A stretch of DNA of 41,220 nt from Kondoa subrosea (taxonomy: Eukaryota): assembly GCA_039545335.1 (NCBI GenBank), contig BCIN01000005.1, forward strand, positions 1,457,946-1,499,165, in the 5' to 3' direction. Below the pieces are notes generated by a model. The model was not told the origin of the DNA and did no database searches. It worked only from the letters and a program-made list of their open reading frames with translations. Of this stretch, positions 31,953-41,220 are shown piece after piece (position 1 is the first letter of the stretch; each line of letters begins with the position of its first letter). Both the position numbers and the translations under genes were made by a program.

Positions 31953-33029
31953 CTACAGCTGCCAAGCCATTTCAAGCAGCTCTTCATACTTGAATTCCCT
32001 GCCCGTCTTGCCTTGAAAGTCTGCCAGCAGTCTTCTTTCCTTTGACCTTTCGTTCTTCTCAGCATAGAACCGCTGCAGACGCATGCATAAAAGTTGAGCA
32101 TCGGTTTGAGAGATGAGCTGTCCAGATCCTGAATCACTTGCTGTGATTTCACCACGAAGCAGAACGATACCATGCGAAATGGCAAGATCAGTGTAATGTG
32201 TTAGAATGAGGGCTGGTTGAGCAAAAGTCCCGTGGCTCTTGTACGATGCTAAAGAAGTAAAGAGAACAGTAGTCGTTTCTGGCGTGCTTGCCGGCATGGC
32301 TGAAGGAGAAGGAACGAATGCCCATTCGAGAAAGATGTTTTCCGCTCCAGTTGTTCCGTCAGATGTTTCTCGAGGCAGAGGAAGGATGAAGCGCAGATTC
32401 TCGCGAGCTATTGCGGTCATTCGCCTGTAGGTTTCGACGGGGATGACGGCGCCTAGTTTCGTTGTTGATTTGGCTGAAGCATGGTAAGCTTTCCAAAGGG
32501 CAGAGATCTCCTCGGCTGAAGGTGCAGGATGCCTTGTGAGAAGCTTCTGTAGGTCTACGATGTCCGAAAGAGGCTATAGATACCTTGAGCTCGGCTGAAA
32601 CTGGAGAGCGGACTGCTGACCTTGATGCCGCTCTTGCTCTTCGCTTGATCGATCCCGCTCGGCAATGAAGGAGCTACAACAGCAGAAGGTATCTGTTGCA
32701 GAGATGAATTGCTTGATAGCTTGGGAGCCGGATTGAATGGCTTGATTGGTTTCACTTTTTCAGCTTGACGAGCCTTGTCCTTCAACGTCTGCAAGTCTAC
32801 TCCTTTCCTGGCGTCCAGATGAACAAGAACTCAAGATAAATATGAAATTCACTCACGCCTTTGCCGCAGCCTCCAGCGCCTGCCCATACTTCTGTTCATA
32901 CTGTTGCCGTTTTTGAGCTATCCTTTCCCGTGAACCTATCAATGCCTCTGGCACGTCAGTGGTCAAACATCGGAAGCTGCTGCATCTCTTGCAGGATAGA
33001 AGTGGTCGATATAACAGGCTTGTGATCAT
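31953..33029 (-). CDS. ATP11: Mitochondrial F1-ATPase assembly chaperone Atp11
   Basis: EISALWKAYH..LGAVIPVETY..FILPLPR..FLEW..TVLFTSLASYK..QPALILTHYTDL..GIVLLRGEI..DAQLL..LQRFY. Presequence-like start MITSLLYRPLLSCKR. Confidence 0.92.
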
Positions 33030-34190
33030 CGTGTCTTGACAACCCGCTGATTGGCTTCAAGCTACAAGAGGTGGCTTTCTGCAACTTGCTTACAGATGAG
33101 CAGAGTCCGCAACAGTTAAGCATGATCATGAAATCATCTACACAAATAAATAACTCTCGCTTGCTACTAAGACTTCCGCTGCCTTGCTCAAGCTTGAATT
33201 CACTCTCCACTCTGCCTTCCAGCTACTACAATGATCGAATCCAGCTCGCCCTTTGCTTCTAAGCTTGCGACTTACTCCTACTGATAGCTTTGGCTCGAGA
33301 GAAAAGCACTGCTCGAGACGGAAGACTGCTTGCTGCTGCCAGGGCCTTGACTGAACTACACCGATTTGCCCTTTTACTGTTGACTGCTCTACTTGCGCGA
33401 CTGCTTTCACGACTTTTCTCGGAAGACTTGAAGACTCTACTCGCTTACACTCTACTCTTCAAAGCTTGCTGACGGGCAGCTCGCGCTTTTCTTTCCCTTT
33501 CTGCCTGACTGATCAAAGATGCTTGCTGTCAGCTTCTTCTGCTCTCAGGTCTACTGCTACCGATCAAGATCAGACTGACAAGGAGCTCTACGGAAGCTGA
33601 GACACAAGACTCTGAACTCAAGCTCTATCCGGCTTTCATCTCTACCTTTTGCAAAAACATCTCCTCACCGGTTTCTGCTCTGCTATTTCGACAGACTATC
33701 TTATGCTCAGCTCTGGCTTACTCCCGCTCGCTCGAGCGCGGCACTTGACTGAAGCTGAGCACTGAAAGCTACACCTCTTGTTTGACAAGCTGCGACGCAC
33801 TTTCTTGCTGCTTTACCACTTGCTACTTCGCNATTTGATTTGACGCACAGAAGATAGCTTTCAGCTAGACTTTCTTCTGTCTTTGCAGGCTCGACTTTGA
33901 CCTGCTACTTTGTGTGTAACATCTTGAAGCTGCGTTTCGGTCGATGACGAACTTGAAGGCTCGGCGCTTCCAAGCAACAGCAACTGCAGGACACAAATGA
34001 AGACTGGCTAGAGCGAAGGTCTTACTAGTCATAGGACTTTGTTGCTTTTTTCCAAGCTTTTGCAAAGGAAGAGTTGAAGTATGAGAGGTAAAATGCGAGC
34101 GTGATCTACAGGTGTGCTGGAAGCTGAGTCTTGTATCAGAGGAAGATAGTTGAGTTTGAAGCTGGAGGTGAGTATCTCAGGGAGATAGTT

Positions 34191-34249
34191 GGATTGTATC
34201 GAAACTAGTTGCAAGGTAGTTTCGCTAATGCTTCTTCAGTCGATAATCC
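34191..34249 (-). ncRNA. Type I hammerhead ribozyme (PLE-associated type)
   Basis: Minus strand: GGAUU-AUCGA [CUGAAGA A] GC-AUUA-GC [GAAA] CUA-CCUUGCAAC-UAG [UU^] UCGAU-AC-AAUCC. Full catalytic core, 10-bp stem I with an AC bulge, 2-bp stem II, short stem III, GUU cleavage triplet. Confidence 0.8.
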
Positions 34250-35049
34250 GAAAGACAATTGAGATGAAAAGACTCTCAAGCAAGTTTCTGAGCCTTAAGT
34301 ATGCGACATTGCAAAATATTGTTATTCTATTGTGCTCTGGACACGTGCAGTATAAGCTCATAAACAGCCTGTTTGCTGCTATGAATACTCTGAATAACAT
34401 CTGTAGTCCCATTGAAGAGCCAGCTATGTTTTTTGCTGTGAAGTCAGTGACTCTCTTCCTGTATTGACGGTGTGGTCTCAGGGATCAATGTAATAGCTAT
34501 GTGTGTAATGACTTCATTGTACTGTGTCTGCTCTCATGAGGCAATAGCTCTGTTCAAAGCAGATTGCTCGAATTCTTGTTTGCACTCGAACCGTCATGTC
34601 TCGTGAATACCTTGACTGCAAGTAGTCTGTATTGCTTCAAGATGGATTATACCTGACATGTAGAGTCATTTCCTCGAGTCTCCGGCTTTATGAGCTCTTG
34701 AACTTTGAGAGAAACTTTGGGTTGTGTAAAAAGTGATGGAAGGGTGTAATATGAAGCTGCTCTGGCCAGATCGTGACAAGCTCTGATGCGCACATCAGTA
34801 TCAGATCAGGTAAGGAGTTATTGTGTTGAAAGATGTCAACCTGACATCTCCCACTCCTTGGACAGTCTCCACTAGCTGTTTGCTCGTCTTTGATGGAGTC
34901 AACGCGTAAGAACCTCCTTTGCGCGATGTATGCTTCCTTCATCATGTCCTATTAGCGAACTCTGATGATCTCTGTGAGACAGCATTATATCTTTTGAACA
35001 GCCGCTATGTTCAGGTTGTTCTATATTCCAGTGGACTTCAATAAGGAAA

Positions 35050-35800
35050 GCAGCCTTCTACTCAGATCAAAGTTCCTATGCGTACATGGGTGAACGAGAG
35101 AAGATTCAGAAGTAATTGCGATTCATTACTTCCGTGAGTTCGCTTTCCGCGTTCTCGTGTGCTTGGCTTATCTGGTTCTGCTCCTCGTCAGGATCAACAC
35201 AGAACGTTGCTATACTGGAATATTCGATTGCAGATCTATAGTTCTTGCTCTATTGATGTTCAACCTATGGTCAATATGTTTGGCAATCTTTGGTTATTAT
35301 CACTTTCAACTTTCTCTAGTCGCTATTACCTTCTACACCTACGTAGAAGACGCTTGGAAGATCCACATATGAAGTTCCTTGTTGTTATGTGATGGAATGG
35401 ACTTGCGTTCTGATGAACTGCAATGAATTCGTGAGTTTCTCTCATATCACTATTAAGAGTACAAGTCTAAGGCTTAAATGTGTGATATCAGGTACTGCTC
35501 ATTCACTCGTATGCATCTTTGTGAAGGTTGTTGCAGGATTACTTATCAGTTTCTCCTGGACCAATTCAGGCTGGCAAGAACTGTTCGTGGATTTGGTTCA
35601 TGCAAAGGTCTCCTTCAAGTCTATTCTTCGACCTATTAGAGCGTGCGTTTTTGCTCTATTGGGGTCTTTGTCGCTGAGCTGACGTTTTTATGACTGCTTA
35701 GCTCAAGCAGTGAAACAATGAACTTGATCGCTATTGTAGGTGTCTTAATGGAGTTAGCTCCTTCAGCTGATCATCTTCATTGTATCGATGGCTAGGTGAT
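35050..35800 (+). pseudogene. Degenerate intron-containing gene remnant, identity unknown
   Basis: Three well-formed plus-strand introns (35134-35191, 35431-35491, 35643-35701; the last has a GCTGAC branch site). No stop-free spliced frame found. Confidence 0.35.
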
Positions 35801-36437
35801 ATCTCTGGTCATATCTCCTGCTATGTCTCGTATTCAATTACAGAAATATGGATTGGTTCTGCTAGAATACGATTTATGACAGGCGTAAAGGCGATAATAG
35901 GTCAGTTCAGCGGCTTCCAGGTTATGAACGTCGATTTTAATGGAGCTGGATAGTTATATCTCTCAGGTTTGCACCGCCTGGTTCCTGTGATCGAGCGTGC
36001 GCTGAATCCCTATGCTTCTATAGGGTAGATCTGGTTGCTGGGTCAAGCTATCATGACTGAATAAGATGACTTAAGTACAAGAGTAGGGCGGGAACCGAAA
36101 CATCAAGTAAGTAAGACCTTTTTACTTCTTATTCAGGATAGTTTGCTCAAGCTTGTCTATAGCTGGGCCTATTATTCATATCATCTGGCAGTACTGCTAT
36201 TCAGCAATGGGTGAGTCACCTCTTTGATATTGTCAGATAGGTTAGTCTTATGGTCCTTCTTCATCGTTAGAGAGAGTCCGTTAGAGAGAGAGTCTTTAAT
36301 AGGAGGGCTTTTACTATGGAAAGTTATGAGGAGTAATTCAATGTGTTAACAAGTGTTATAGTAGTGTTATGTAATGTATTATGCTAGACAACAGCCAATG
36401 TATATAATGCGATGTGACTTGTCACTTGTCAACCACT

Positions 36438-37397
36438 TTACTCTTGCTGCAGATTGTCTAGCTTCGCCATTATATCTTTATGCCCAGTACTCAGATGCAT
36501 AAAGCATCTCCAGCCATGTCCCATCTGGTCTAGCACCTTGGCTTTATGAATCTTATCAAATTTCTTCGACTTGCAAAGATTGCATTCGTCACCTTGCTTC
36601 CCGTACCAGTTTGGCCAGCGTGCATTGTTTGGTTGATTGATCAGATGTACGTTCTCATCTGTGATTCGCAAGCCTTTGTGCTGATTCAAGCGGCTTCTCC
36701 AGACCTTTTGCTCTTGAACAGAGAATTGATCTTTGCTGTTTGCCTGATAGAACGAACGCTTTCTAGTAGCAGTAGCATTGGTCATGTCTTTCAAAGGTGT
36801 GTCCTCGAGCTTTCCCTCCTTGGTCATAGTTGAGAATATGTCCAAGCAGGCTTCTGTGTCTGCTAAAGCTGAGTGAGCATTCTTTAGCTCTTTACCGGTA
36901 TAGTACATGAGAGCTGTGCTCAAATTTCTTTTGATACAGTCCTTCTGAAAGCTTTGGAACAGATCTGTAATGATGCAAGAATCGATGTTGTGCGATACTT
37001 TGCTTCTGTTCATTTCTGCTCTCAGGAGAGGTAAGTCAAAAGCTTCAATGTTGTACCCTACTAGATTGCAGTCTCTGAAGACAGGTACTAGTTGTTGGGC
37101 TATTGATTTGAAGCTTGGGCATTGCTTCACGTCGTGATTTGTGATTCTATGAATCTTAGTGCTTTCTTCAGGTATGTTCACCTGTGGATTGAAGCGTATC
37201 GTTTTAGTCTGACGTTTCCCATTAGGGTGCAATTGAATTACTGTAGGTTCTACTATCCTGTCTTTCTGACAATCTAATCCTGTTGTTTCTAGATCAAAGA
37301 TGACTGTTCGTCTCTTGATTTGGAGATTATGTCTGGCATTCTTAAGCTTTATTCGTTCTAAGACTTCTGTTTTGGCAAGATCTTTATGCTTGGTCAA
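36438..37397 (-). CDS. DEDDh (DnaQ / Pol III epsilon-like) 3'-5' exonuclease with a Cys/His-rich C-terminal extension
   Basis: ExoI VIFDLETTGL..DRIVE, ExoII LVGYNIEAFDLPLL, ExoIII AHSALADTEAC. Tail ECNLCK..H..C..H..H. No AUG upstream of ExoI in this frame, so the true start is probably in ORF 37394-37591. Confidence 0.9.
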   Translation of the reverse strand: MTKHKDLAKTEVLERIKLKNARHNLQIKRRTVIFDLETTGLDCQKDRIVEPTVIQLHPNGKRQTKTIRFNPQVNIPEESTKIHRITNHDVKQCPSFKSIAQQLVPVFRDCNLVGYNIEAFDLPLLRAEMNRSKVSHNIDSCIITDLFQSFQKDCIKRNLSTALMYYTGKELKNAHSALADTEACLDIFSTMTKEGKLEDTPLKDMTNATATRKRSFYQANSKDQFSVQEQKVWRSRLNQHKGLRITDENVHLINQPNNARWPNWYGKQGDECNLCKSKKFDKIHKAKVLDQMGHGWRCFMHLSTGHKDIMAKLDNLQQE

Positions 37398-37686
37398 GTT
37401 TGGAACAAGGTCTTTTCACTTTGGCTCGGTTCAGTGCATGCATACAGCGGAGCTGCAAGGTGTGCTGTGAGCTCTAGACTCTGGGGCTGTTTCTGATTCT
37501 CTTCTTTCAATAGTGTATATGTTTTCTCCTTCCAGGCTGTGAGCCTTTCTTCAAACAATCCTTTAATCATTGATGTCCTGATAATGATCATCAGATTGAT
37601 TGATTATCAAGGTGTGTGTTTATATAGTGTCATGTTTTTGTTGTCTGGTTTACATTAATATGAGCTTATCTTTCTAGTACGATGTA

Positions 37687-40377
37687 TTACAATCCCTTTA
37701 GCTTTCGCGCGGTAAGTATTCTACGGTTCAGTTTTGGAGGTAGCGAAACACACATAGTGATCTTTTCTTTGGATAAGAAGCTAGGTATGTTTGGTTCTTT
37801 GGCTATGGCCTCTGAGAATTGGTCCAAAGCCTTTCTGACTTCTTTAGTATCTATAGCAGGATTCTGTTGGAGATGGAAGAGTAAAGGTATGTCCTTTATC
37901 TTTTCCTTAGGTTCTAGATATGCTGCTCGTCTCGCATAGTCGACACCTGAAAGCGCTTTGGAAATGAATTTGTCAGAGTAGCCTCTGCTCTTCAGTCTTT
38001 CTCTGAATAAGACTAGTAAGCTTTCGTAGTCTTCTCTGCATGAGTTCGTTCTAACGTATCTTATAGCTTCGCCTTTAATGAAGGCTGCCTTCATTGCATC
38101 GTTGTGATAGGACTTTGCTGGCAGGTAAGAATATCTGTTCATTGGCTTTTGATATGTCCTGATGTCTAGCTTTCCTTCTTTTCGGAATCTTTTGCCTGTA
38201 CTAATCTCTAGATCAAGCATGATAGCTCTGTCCTTGGAGATATCAGAGGTGAGTTTGATAGTCTTCTCGAGTGCATTTAGTTCCTTGAAGAACTGTTGTA
38301 CTTGCTCGTGAGTGCATATAAAGAGAGCAAATATATCATCTACAAAGCGTCTGTATAGTTTTAATAGTCCGCTCTTTTGCCATTTTTCGACAAGTGCCTT
38401 TTCAACCTCTTCCATGAACAGATTCGCCAGATTTACAGCGCAAGGAGTGCCCATGGCGGTGCCTCCCTTTTGTCTATATACCTTGCCTAAGAAGATGTTG
38501 TAGTTGCTTTGCATTGTTATCCTCAAGGCTTCACAAAGAAATCTCAATCTATTAGAGTCGTATCCTTCTTCCTGGAGTCTAGCAGCAATGAGACTTATAG
38601 CTCTATCTGTTGGTATGTTTGGGTACATTGCTTCTATATCAGCTGTCGCTAACCATAGGTCTGCATTGCGTTCTAGCGTTGTAGCTAATTGGCTGTCATG
38701 TTCAATAATGCCAATCAACTGGCTGCTGTCTCTAAGACATATTGATGATCTCTTCACATACGGCGCAAGTTCTACATCGATCCACTGGGAGAGTGCGTAA
38801 GTAGACCATCCGCAAGATGGTGTTATAGGTCTGCTTGCTATCTTTGGAGGTTTGTGGATTTTTGCCAGTATGTAAAAGCGAATGAGCTGATCTGGAGTAT
38901 CCTTTGTTATCCAGGCTCTTTCTTCTTCTGTTAGTTCCTTATAGGAATCGACAAGTCTCGAAATTGATTTTCTTACATTGAACAGTATGACATCCTGGGG
39001 TAGGTCTATTTGTTCGTAAGTGCTCTCATCTTGAAGATGTTTATGGCATTCGCTGATGTACCATGTAGTATCTACTGCTGTATATCCTAAGTTTTTGTCA
39101 GCAGCAATGATGAGAATTTCGTCATCGAGTAGCAGCTTTTCTAAAGCTTGATGGCTAGCAATGGGTAGGTTTCTCTCCTCCTGTTTAGTTTCAGGCAGTT
39201 TACGTAGTGCCTTGCGTAGGCAGTTTAACTGGGTCTCTACGAAGCTGTCTTGCGGTTCTGGATGGAAAGACGATCTTTTCCTCCATCTCGAGGGCGGAAT
39301 GATCATGTCCTCAACCTCTGCTTCTTATTCGGGTGAGTTATACTCTACGTGAAACATTTGACGAAGTCTGATCATGCGTTTAAAGCGCTGGAATCCGCTT
39401 TCAAGTGAGCTTTTATCTCTTCTTGGTATATCAATGAATCTTAGCCCCATGGCTAGAGCTTCTTTCTCCAGATCTGTGAGTTTCCTAGTAGTCAGGTCAT
39501 TGACTTGTATGTCTTTGACTCCTAGTGTCAATAGGTTATTTCTCGCTTTGGTCTCTTCGACTGTGTAAGTCTTCTTTGCTCCTCTGCGTCCTCGTCCTCT
39601 ACGTTTGGAAGAAATAGTACTGATAGCATTGTCCGTAGAATTACTACTACAAGGGGCTGTGAACTCTATGGTCTGCCCCTCCCTCTGCCTCTGCCTCCTC
39701 TGAATGTTGGGGTTTGAGAGTGATGGTGAGTCTTGGCTTTCTTGTGAGTTCCGTCGTTCTGACGATGGTGATTCTCCTTTCTCTTCGAAGGACCAGCAAT
39801 CTAATAGTGATTTAGCTGGGTTGTGTGTTTGTGAAACCGAATGGCATACTGGAGCGCTATGTCTCAAGGCAAGTTCTTCCTTTGCCTTGTTGACCCTCTT
39901 CTCGAAGCTTTCTGATTCCAACTTCCAGGCAGTATCTGCTTCCTTCAAGGCTATTTCCTTTACGATATTGGCTTCCCCTTGCAACATCAAGAAGACTGCT
40001 TCTATGATTCCATCGATCTCGCTATCCCAAGTATCTGCTAGGCTTGCATCTACCAACCTTTTGCTTTCAATGACGGATTTGGCTTTCTTGTAGGTTACTT
40101 GAATGAAGTTTCCTGAAAGAATGTCGTTGATCTGCTTTTCTAGTTGCTCAGCACTGTGGCTGCAGATGATGTGCATGCGGGCTCTCTGGTATGTGGTCCA
40201 TAATTGAGCTGCTTGTTGGTCCAATTCTTCTCCTAGGCTCTTGATACCTGCATCTGGAGCGAAGATTGGAATAGAGGAGAGAACGAAATTTCCTTCTGTA
40301 GAGGATTGGTAGCGTTCTTTCCAGTGTGGCATACTAGAATGAGACTGTAGCAATAGATTAGTAAACATAGGCGACAT
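37687..40377 (-). pseudogene. Penelope-like reverse transcriptase (ORF1-RT frame, about 896 codons, one in-frame TAA at 39325-39327)
   Basis: PLE N-terminal motif NDLTTRKLT..E..AL..GLRF, ADKNLG, FYILAKIHK..SRPI, DIEAMYPNIP, GTAMGTPCAVNLANLFM, YRRFVDDIF, LDL, and thumb YQKPMNRYSYLP..SYH..FIKGEAIRY..RLKSRGY. ORFs 39325-40377 and 37687-39306 are in the same frame. No GIY-YIG found. Confidence 0.92.
39666..40377 (-). CDS. Predicted spliced ORF1 protein (helical/coiled-coil with a basic RGG tail)
   Basis: Removing intron 39801-39849 (GTATGC...GCTAAA...TTAG, 49 nt) gives ...KAKEELALRHSAP|IAGPSKRKENHHRQNDGTHKKAKTHHHSQTPTFRGGRGRGRGRP* (TAG 39666-39668). Confidence 0.65.
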
Positions 40378-41220
40378 TAGAGATAATGTTAGCCTACTCT
40401 TGACTTTTGCTCACTTCTCAATCCAAATACGATTATTTCCACATGACTGCAGACATAGGTGTATGTCCTACAATCCATTGTTCAGATTTCGTCTCAAAGG
40501 CTCTCGAGAGTGCCCTCTTAGATGACTGTGACTTACCAGAAAGGAATAAGGTAAAGGGTATGACCAACCAGCAGATACATCCACTGCATCACAAATGACT
40601 GATCAGTAATGGAACAAGATAGCAATGTGCGCGTATAGCTCACAAGTGCTTCAAGGCATGCGTGGAGGTAAGCTTCTCTTCAATCAAACCGCTTTCAAAC
40701 CACCTTCTTCTCCTCAATCATTCATTCTCACTGTTATCCTCATTCTCCGTTTCTTTGCTCTATCGAAGAAGTATCCGTGCAACACGATCATTACGTCCAA
40801 GCCTGTTCACAGCGTTCAGCATCAGTGCCTTACAACCTGTCAGTAAGTGAAGCCCGTACTGGAGAGCTNTCAATCTGAGCGTTGCAATCAGCTGAGTACT
40901 ATGTGTGTGAAGCAGTATAACGCACTTGAAGATACACATGACACTCAAGCAAGCAGAATAAAGTAATAGAAGCAANGGGANCAAGTGACATTGAGATTGA
41001 GTATNTGAGCGAGTGAACGGCATNANTNTCCAACGCGANCAGGTGNAGTAGCCATAATCCGAACGTTTCCAAAGTAGCAACAATCAATCCATATAGCTAT
41101 AGCTCATTGAGCGCCTTTGCCTGGAGCTGGATTTCTCTGCTTCTTTCTCATTCGTATTCCTGCTGTCTATTCACCAGCGGCGGGTATGTTCACATCCTCA
41201 ATAAGCAGAGGGTATAAAAA

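Follow-up and report, generated by a model that had tools for sequence, protein, structure and literature searches.

Does a 49-nt segment inside a retroelement act as an intron whose removal or retention decides which protein the element makes? The question is raised by a 41,220-nt stretch of the Kondoa subrosea genome (assembly GCA_039545335.1, contig BCIN01000005.1, positions 1,457,946-1,499,165), which was analysed as a whole and is called the window here. Judged from its sequence, the minus strand of the window carries one copy of a fungal Penelope-like retroelement (PLE) of the endonuclease-less kind, with a long frame that encodes a helical N-terminal domain, a linker and a reverse transcriptase (RT), followed by a DEDD exonuclease gene. 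A sequence-only reading of the window had proposed that splicing yields a short protein and that intron retention yields a fusion to the RT. At the level of the family this switch is probably real, because the splice signals and the RGG frame that splicing exposes are conserved in homologs. The sequence-only reading had itself staked the proposal on conservation of the GT/AG sites and of the RGG frame, and both were conserved in the relatives.

On the minus strand, a single frame is open from 40410 to 39328, meets one in-frame TAA at 39327-39325 and resumes in the same frame to 37690. The 49-nt segment in this frame has GT-AG ends, a branch-like site and a size within the host range, as a spliceosomal intron would. 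Reading of the sequence and a script located the signals where they had been reported: GTATGC at 39849 (donor GT at 39849-39848, minus strand), GCTAAA at 39816-39811 and TTAG ending at 39801. The donor falls on a codon boundary, at codon 188 of the long frame counted from 40410, and the length of 49 nt is 3n+1, both as described. A size like that of host introns had also been claimed; host introns predicted by bridging open reading frames (ORFs) in the window are 50, 53, 53 and 64 nt long, a small sample into which 49 nt fits. Frame 0 of the segment contains no stop, and each of the other two frames contains one.

Splicing would place exon 2 in the +1 frame, where it reads IAGPSKRKENHHRQNDGTHKKAKTHHHSQTPTFRGGRGRGRGRP up to the stop that ends at 39666. 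The 44-amino-acid tail so formed is basic and RG-rich and ends in RGGRGRGRGRP, as had been said. The further claim that retention keeps the frame open into the RT was correct from 39800 to 39328 and failed at the TAA, beyond which the RT core (DKNLGY onward) lies. Both frames are stop-free over 135 nt, as reported, and this had been taken as a sign of dual coding. The third frame is likewise open (50 codons), because the stretch has only 13% T, and we therefore rejected stop-freeness as a weak argument for dual coding. A chance test on the 2724-nt frame (GTRNGY donor, first YAG at 40-70 nt, CTRAN branch; 500 block shuffles) gave 2 intron candidates compared to 0.83 expected, and 1 candidate of phase 0 and 3n+1 length compared to 0.10 expected.

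The evidence that carries the switch comes from relatives. A metagenome scan returned 80 loci (L001-L080). Five of L001-L024 (L004, L009, L010, L011 and L023) end at a contig edge before the intron region and 19 retain it; beyond these, the search for the intron arrangement covered L025-L071 and found it only in L027, L054 and L059. The resulting 22 relatives, whose RTs are 33-36% identical to that of the window, provide 23 introns when the window is included. All 22 have a phase-0 GT at the alignment column of the window donor, at the end of the N-terminal domain. Their donors read GTGAGT, GTAAGT, GTAAGC, GTGAGC, GTCAGT, GTAAGA or GTAAAA, and in 19 relatives the donor island appears in protein as 'NVS' or 'AVS' (in DNA AAT GTG AGT, AAT GTA AGT, GCA GTA AGC and similar). 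A branch-like motif of the CTAAY/CTGAT type (ACTAAT/ACTAAC type) precedes the acceptor in nearly all, and was judged weak by eye in L018 and L059. The first YAG gives introns of 46, 49, 52 or 55 nt, so that 23 of 23 are 3n+1, and length differences among them are exclusively multiples of 3. By manual count the introns form about 15 clusters below 70% identity.

In a comparison of five group-A copies, nothing was invariant but the 5' site, the 3' end and the branch block ACACTAAT. The intron interior changed at 11/9/11 sites by codon position, with no periodicity, and therefore does not evolve like coding sequence. The splice signals, found in 22 of 22 relatives, together with such an interior match the pattern of a spliceosomal intron. 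Frame 0 was nevertheless stop-free in 23/23 introns, compared to 3/23 for the +1 frame and 0/23 for the +2 frame; a shuffled interior was stop-free in frame 0 with P between 0.26 and 0.67 for each intron. The simplest reading of these sequences is that selection would keep both the splice signals and the ability of the intron to be read through.

Downstream of the acceptor, the +1 frame continues for 38-78 codons to a stop in every relative, with an R[YF][HQTN]PY motif and an RG-rich end (for example ..RGRGM before the stop). The variable sites of the motif are third positions of the +1 frame (AGA/AGG, TAC/TAT/TTC, CCT/CCC/CCA, TAT/TAC), at which the amino acid of the long frame is altered, as judged by eye. 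Substitutions were counted as minimum changes per column in four groups comprising 17 loci. When aligned by the +1 frame, 89/95/176 changes fell on positions 1/2/3 of that frame. A frame-blind nucleotide alignment gave 82/82/141 on positions 1/2/3 of the spliced frame (p 1e-5), and the third-position peak stayed in place when the retained frame, the third frame or nucleotides alone were used for alignment. Controls in frame 0 followed the usual pattern, with 166/138/336 for exon 1 and 381/263/677 for the RT N-terminus over positions 1/2/3. Across 8 non-overlapping pairs, the ratio of nonsynonymous to synonymous change (pN/pS) was 0.52 in the spliced +1 frame, 1.08 in the third frame and 1.11 in the retained frame. 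Purifying selection thus acts on the alternative frame in the relatives, and its codon periodicity and pN/pS indicate that the protein under selection in the overlap is the spliced product. A count of conserved columns per frame (7/117, 3/107 and 5/102) proved too crude and was replaced by these substitution counts.

The retained frame was stop-free in 23/23 overlaps, compared to 14/23 for the third frame. On this sequence evidence the long frame in the overlap is kept open but can vary in all other respects, in the manner of a linker. We also considered a second intron after the tail that would restore the frame, and rejected it; the GT present in some relatives (..AAT GTA AAT..) is absent by eye from L015 and L017. 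In L010 the contig opens with a 15-nt tandem repeat (L010:2-120, SNHAL repeated) directly upstream of that element's linker.

The same overlap bears on an alternative in which splicing is constitutive and ribosomes get to the RT through a -1 frameshift, or by re-initiating inside the overlap or beyond it, much like the ORF1/RT frameshift drawn for some PLEs. Compared with the spliced frame, that of the RT is at -1; 6/23 overlaps hold a canonical X XXY YYZ heptamer; and according to the legend to figure 1 of PMC8557442 a frameshift with a pseudoknot can set ORF1 apart. However, in a search for heptamers and not for pseudoknots, 17/23 overlaps, that of the window included, had no canonical slippery heptamer, and frameshifting gives no reason why frame 0 of the intron should be stop-free when the other frames are not, or why its length should change only in steps of 3. 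We consider this alternative improbable.

Annotated proteins gave a second view of the junctions. With exon 1 of L014 as query, 13 proteins of 118-286 amino acids were recovered. P0066 (hypothetical protein, Russula emetica, 275 amino acids) and P0070 (Lactarius psammicola, 281 amino acids) both correspond exactly to exon 1, the N-terminal domain, joined directly to the +1 tail with its RG-rich end; the tails of the two contain RYHPY or RYQPY. In tblastn searches, the first block of P0066 ended at L003:2519, the base before the intron at 2520-2568, and the match resumed in the +1 frame. The match of P0070 resumed at L017:1065, on the base that directly follows the intron at that locus. Unspliced read-throughs are represented by four metagenome ORFs (P0067, P0068, P0071 and P0076). 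P0069 of Russula brevipes shares the donor region and then continues in the third, glutamate-rich frame, which may reflect another acceptor or an indel. An R-x-x-P-Y sequence beside RG repeats is reminiscent of nuclear import signals of the PY type and of RGG boxes that bind RNA. The conserved R[YF][HQTN]PY and RG repeats in the +1 tails of the relatives, P0066 and P0070 resemble, by analogy, a PY-type import signal beside an RGG box.

These junctions also bear on two other accounts of the segment. It could be that nothing is spliced and that GT...AG is due to chance or to a protein-level feature (the 'ANVS' motif) of a single long protein. The weak statistics of the window taken alone and the uninterrupted long ORF of all relatives are in keeping with this, but the island is conserved as DNA (GTRAGY, branch block, YAG) around an interior that lacks codon periodicity, it is the +1 frame, not the long one, in which the downstream stretch evolves as coding sequence, and the gene models use these exact junctions. 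The absence of splicing is thus very unlikely. We give equally little credence to a pairing of donor 39849 with the CAG at 39702-39700, which would produce a 150-nt in-frame intron that shortens the linker and leaves the frame unchanged. The sequence permits it, 150 is a multiple of 3, and a pyrimidine-richer stretch (..CTCACCATCACTCTCAAACCCCAACATTCAG) ends at 39700. However, the host introns predicted here are 50-64 nt long, the YAG conserved in relatives is the first one, at 46-55 nt, and the longer intron would remove the stretch that is under +1 coding selection and is present in the annotated products.

The splice signals, their conservation, selection on the +1 frame, avoidance of stops in frame 0, length changes restricted to multiples of 3 and the match to annotated spliced models are thus established at the level of sequence. 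From them the switch between short protein and RT fusion would operate as follows. When the intron is removed, the ribosome would enter the +1 frame and produce a short protein, made up of the helical domain and a basic tail of the RGG-box type, that ends at 39666. When the intron is kept, it would be read as 16 sense codons and the frame would run on into the RT. One transcript population would then give a presumably abundant short protein and a rarer N-terminal-RT fusion. The fusion would be made only from unspliced RNA, which would also serve as template for new copies. The intron is still present in all genomic copies, and its exact removal, at a length of 3n+1, would shift the RT out of frame, so that replication must proceed from unspliced RNA. 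Splicing would be partial and set the ratio of the two proteins, and the RG-rich tail may bind RNA or import the protein.

Several observations weigh against this switch, most of them for the window copy. In the window alone the intron pattern is not significant and is suggestive only; its support comes from relatives. The window donor GTATGC and branch CTAAA are weaker than the signals of the relatives, and CTAAA deviates from CTRAY. Exon 1 of the window is just 11-22% identical to exon 1 of the relatives, so homology of the window intron rests on position and architecture. The +1 tail of the window has the RG end and lacks the R[YF]HPY motif. In the overlap, the retained frame shows no amino-acid constraint (pN/pS as above), and only its openness, which is partly compositional (the overlaps contain 6-19% T), argues that it is translated. 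The gene models are an independent use of the same junctions by an annotation pipeline, and this may as well have been ab initio as transcript-based. The TAA at 39327-39325 separates the N-terminal RT motifs from the RT core, in a variable segment where 17/17 aligned homologs have a sense residue. Finally, the start of the exonuclease ORF of this copy is probably disrupted.

The last two points suggest that the copy in the window may be defective, because a stop precedes the RT core and the exonuclease start is broken. The stop could be a nonsense mutation, an assembly error or a site of read-through. As it precedes the RT core, the long product of this copy probably ends early; only read-through, or an error of assembly at this codon, would spare it. 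The ORF is uninterrupted in 19/19 of L001-L024 that hold the region. Candidate introns that would remove the TAA (31 and 59 nt) were rejected by eye; neither length divides by 3, and 31 nt would in any case be too short. Ahead of the exonuclease (region 36438-37603, minus strand), an ATG at 37570 opens another frame, and 13 formal introns that would join it to the exonuclease frame included none that was convincing. The window contains 10 Ns, at 33832 and 40861-41052, adjoining and 5' of the element. Because of these scattered Ns local assembly quality is limited, which bears on both the TAA and the break in the exonuclease frame.

An alternative for this copy is that it inherited the signals but is a dead relic in which nothing is switched and a short protein is made at most. 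The position of the TAA among invariably sense residues is consistent with this, as are the exonuclease frame, which lacks an ATG and any clean intron to an upstream one, a window that shows no second copy, terminal repeats, telomeric repeats or ribozyme, and the absence of a close relative from the protein collections searched. However, the 907 codons contain a single stop, alignment of the RT with relatives reveals no frameshift, the stop may be a base error given the Ns nearby, and it may be read through. We place the relic at slightly under an even chance.

The RT and the exonuclease place the element in its family. The window RT matched Pfam RVT_1 at E 1.1e-6 (28.9 bits, slightly below the cut-off of 29.6), and the protein collection contained 65 homologs, of which the best is about 41% identical. 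Each of the 17 best is a single protein, 660-940 amino acids long, and in these the stretch that had been read as the end of ORF1 (NL..LGV.., LALGH.FIP.P) runs on into the RT without a break. In an alignment of the window with these 17 homologs (A1), ADKNLGY, KIHK and RPI (the DKNLGY and KIHK..RPI motifs) are invariant, and R275/R276, L319, G322, F325 and P329 are invariant or nearly so. The window RT ends ..KGL directly after the thumb, like its relatives. No GIY-YIG match was found in any of the three ORFs of the window, and 1/65 RT homologs (P0043) bears PF01541. With a DKN motif in the RT and no GIY-YIG domain, the element is an endonuclease-less PLE in the Athena/Coprina sense.

The exonuclease, the third ORF of the window copy (37415-36441, minus strand), matched Pfam RNase_T at E 3.2e-22. 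L001-L024 have one long ORF ending ..KG[LF], followed in most by a second ORF of about 290-390 amino acids. The N-terminal region, linker and RT lie in a single ORF of about 650-976 amino acids in the 17 best homologs and in 19 of L001-L024. Five of six second ORFs scanned matched RNase_T and the sixth (L022) matched RNase_H_2 only; those of 5 relatives could be aligned to the window exonuclease. A DEDD (RNase_T) exonuclease is conserved as second gene at L001:4023-5084, L006:3455-4594, L017:3280-4371 and L019:3708-4739. Because the relatives show the same order, a long ORF and then an RNase_T ORF, the three parts in the window form one element typical of the family. A third ORF of about 455 amino acids with a weak F-box-like match (E 7e-6 and 1e-3) occurs at L006:5189-6547 and L018:3798-5162, and is also found in L012 and L013.

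Closer copies of the window element were not found: the best RT homolog was that at 41%, a word-based search with exon 1 gave 0 matches, and HMMER with window exon 1 against 1.84 billion representatives gave 2 weak matches only. An AlphaFold model of exon 1 (alignment A2) is all-helical, with long helices at 43-73, 76-107 and 111-174 and a mean pLDDT of 67. Foldseek returned no PDB fold match for exon 1 at E <= 0.001. No Pfam family was assigned to window exon 1 or to P0066, and P0070 had sub-threshold matches only. The N-terminal protein is therefore best described as a predicted helical domain with neither a Pfam family nor a PDB match, and the term 'gag-like' is for it an analogy only. Gene models in relatives begin with a 5' exon that stands apart in another frame; in L027, L005 and L008 the gap measures about 50 nt. 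The true start of exon 1 may lie further 5' if the candidate 5' intron at 40345-40397 is real.

Features of the element and of its spliced and retained frames in the window.
Feature	Position	Strand	Description
Exon 1, N-terminal helical domain	39850..40377	-	176 amino acids, first in-frame ATG to donor
49-nt intron, predicted	39801..39849	-	GTATGC donor in phase 0, GCTAAA branch-like site, TTAG acceptor, 3n+1
Overlap	39666..39800	-	spliced (+1) frame: 44-amino-acid basic tail and TAG 39668-39666; retained frame: open linker
Retained-frame continuation	39328..39800	-	linker, basic RR motif, N-terminal RT-associated motifs (NL..LGV.., LA.G.RFI..P)
In-frame TAA	39325..39327	-	breaks the N-terminal/RT frame in the window copy
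Reverse transcriptase ORF, Penelope-like type	37687..39324	-	545 amino acids and stop; without endonuclease domain
DEDD 3'-5' exonuclease ORF, second gene	36438..37415	-	RNase_T family; without in-frame ATG ahead of the first catalytic motif
Candidate 5' intron	40345..40397	-	53 nt, GTAGGC..TACTAAT..CTACAG

The remainder of the window, positions 1-33000, holds ordinary-looking fungal genes with short introns. G+C content is about 0.47 outside the element and 0.41-0.43 across it. No second copy of the element and no terminal or direct repeats were found within the window. The element sits at the edge of the window and its 5' end points out of it; this orientation would agree with a chromosome end but does not show one. 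No (TTAGGG)2 was found on either strand with up to 1 mismatch; this was the only telomeric repeat unit tried, and that of the host may differ. No Rfam ribozyme family reached its gathering score in the window or in 5 related loci, and no hammerhead ribozyme was found at E <= 1 in 33000-41220.

Among retroelements, PLEs stand nearest to telomerase, and they are known for introns kept in genomic copies. Conserved introns in PLEs are reported in PMC8557442, where the significance of their retention is called unknown. PMC13159263 describes a fungal Coprina element with two ORFs, in which ORF1 has a coil and disordered regions and ORF2 has a nuclear localization signal, DKN, RT and thumb; it gives one ORF as typical of Coprina and two of Athena, and names the DKN motif as typical of PLEs. 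The present element resembles Athena and Coprina in its DKN-type PLE RT, the lack of GIY-YIG, an N-terminal coiled-coil or helical region before the RT, and introns in genomic copies. It differs in that an intron that switches to an overprinted +1 frame with an RG-rich tail is not described for them in the excerpts of these sources, and in having a DEDD exonuclease as second gene. Full-text searches of the literature brought up no PLE for which an intron that switches the frame to an overprinted tail has been described; an earlier account may exist in the primary Athena/Coprina/Terminon papers (PNAS 2007, MBE 2017) or their supplements.

In retroviruses and many retrotransposons, the ratio of Gag to Gag-Pol is set by frameshifting or by stop read-through. 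The present system would be similar in that a single RNA region supports two readings, one yielding an abundant short product and the other a rare long fusion with RT. In contrast, the choice here would be nuclear and made by the spliceosome, not on the ribosome, and no conserved slippery site was found in the 23 overlaps. The closest functional parallel is shGAG of Ty1/Copia elements, in which a splicing choice on the RNA of a single-ORF retroelement gives a short or a full product. Drosophila copia uses a shGAG-like strategy too. For Arabidopsis EVD and other plant Copia elements, alternative splicing produces a subgenomic mRNA for the structural protein and unspliced RNA gives the full polyprotein, which results in an excess of structural over catalytic protein (PMC5580714). 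These, however, are long terminal repeat elements with Gag and Pol, in which the protease region is lost with the intron and splicing goes together with premature termination. In the family studied here, an intron of 46-55 nt moves translation into the frame of an overprinted tail, and the element is of non-LTR, telomerase-related type with no sequence relationship to Ty1/Copia. No Gag, protease or integrase domains were found by Pfam in the ORFs of the window element, and the resemblance is functional only.

For the family as a whole, we think it somewhat more probable than its opposite that a clade of fungal endonuclease-less PLEs uses a phase-0, 3n+1 mini-intron as a nuclear 'frameshift'. 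Splicing would overprint the linker with a conserved tail (R[YF]HPY and RG-rich, similar to a PY nuclear localization signal and an RGG box) and so produce an abundant chaperone-like protein, and the RT and viable progeny would come only from intron-containing RNA. If true, this would explain in functional terms why PLEs keep introns, as has long been noted; a conserved intron that changes the frame, with selection on both outcomes, would explain the retention of at least this intron. It would also be a third means by which retroelements balance structural protein against RT, next to frameshifting or read-through on the ribosome and the splicing of Copia shGAG. The 'hypothetical proteins' annotated in Russulaceae genomes would then be the short product of these elements, and annotation of such elements as a single ORF would miss one protein.

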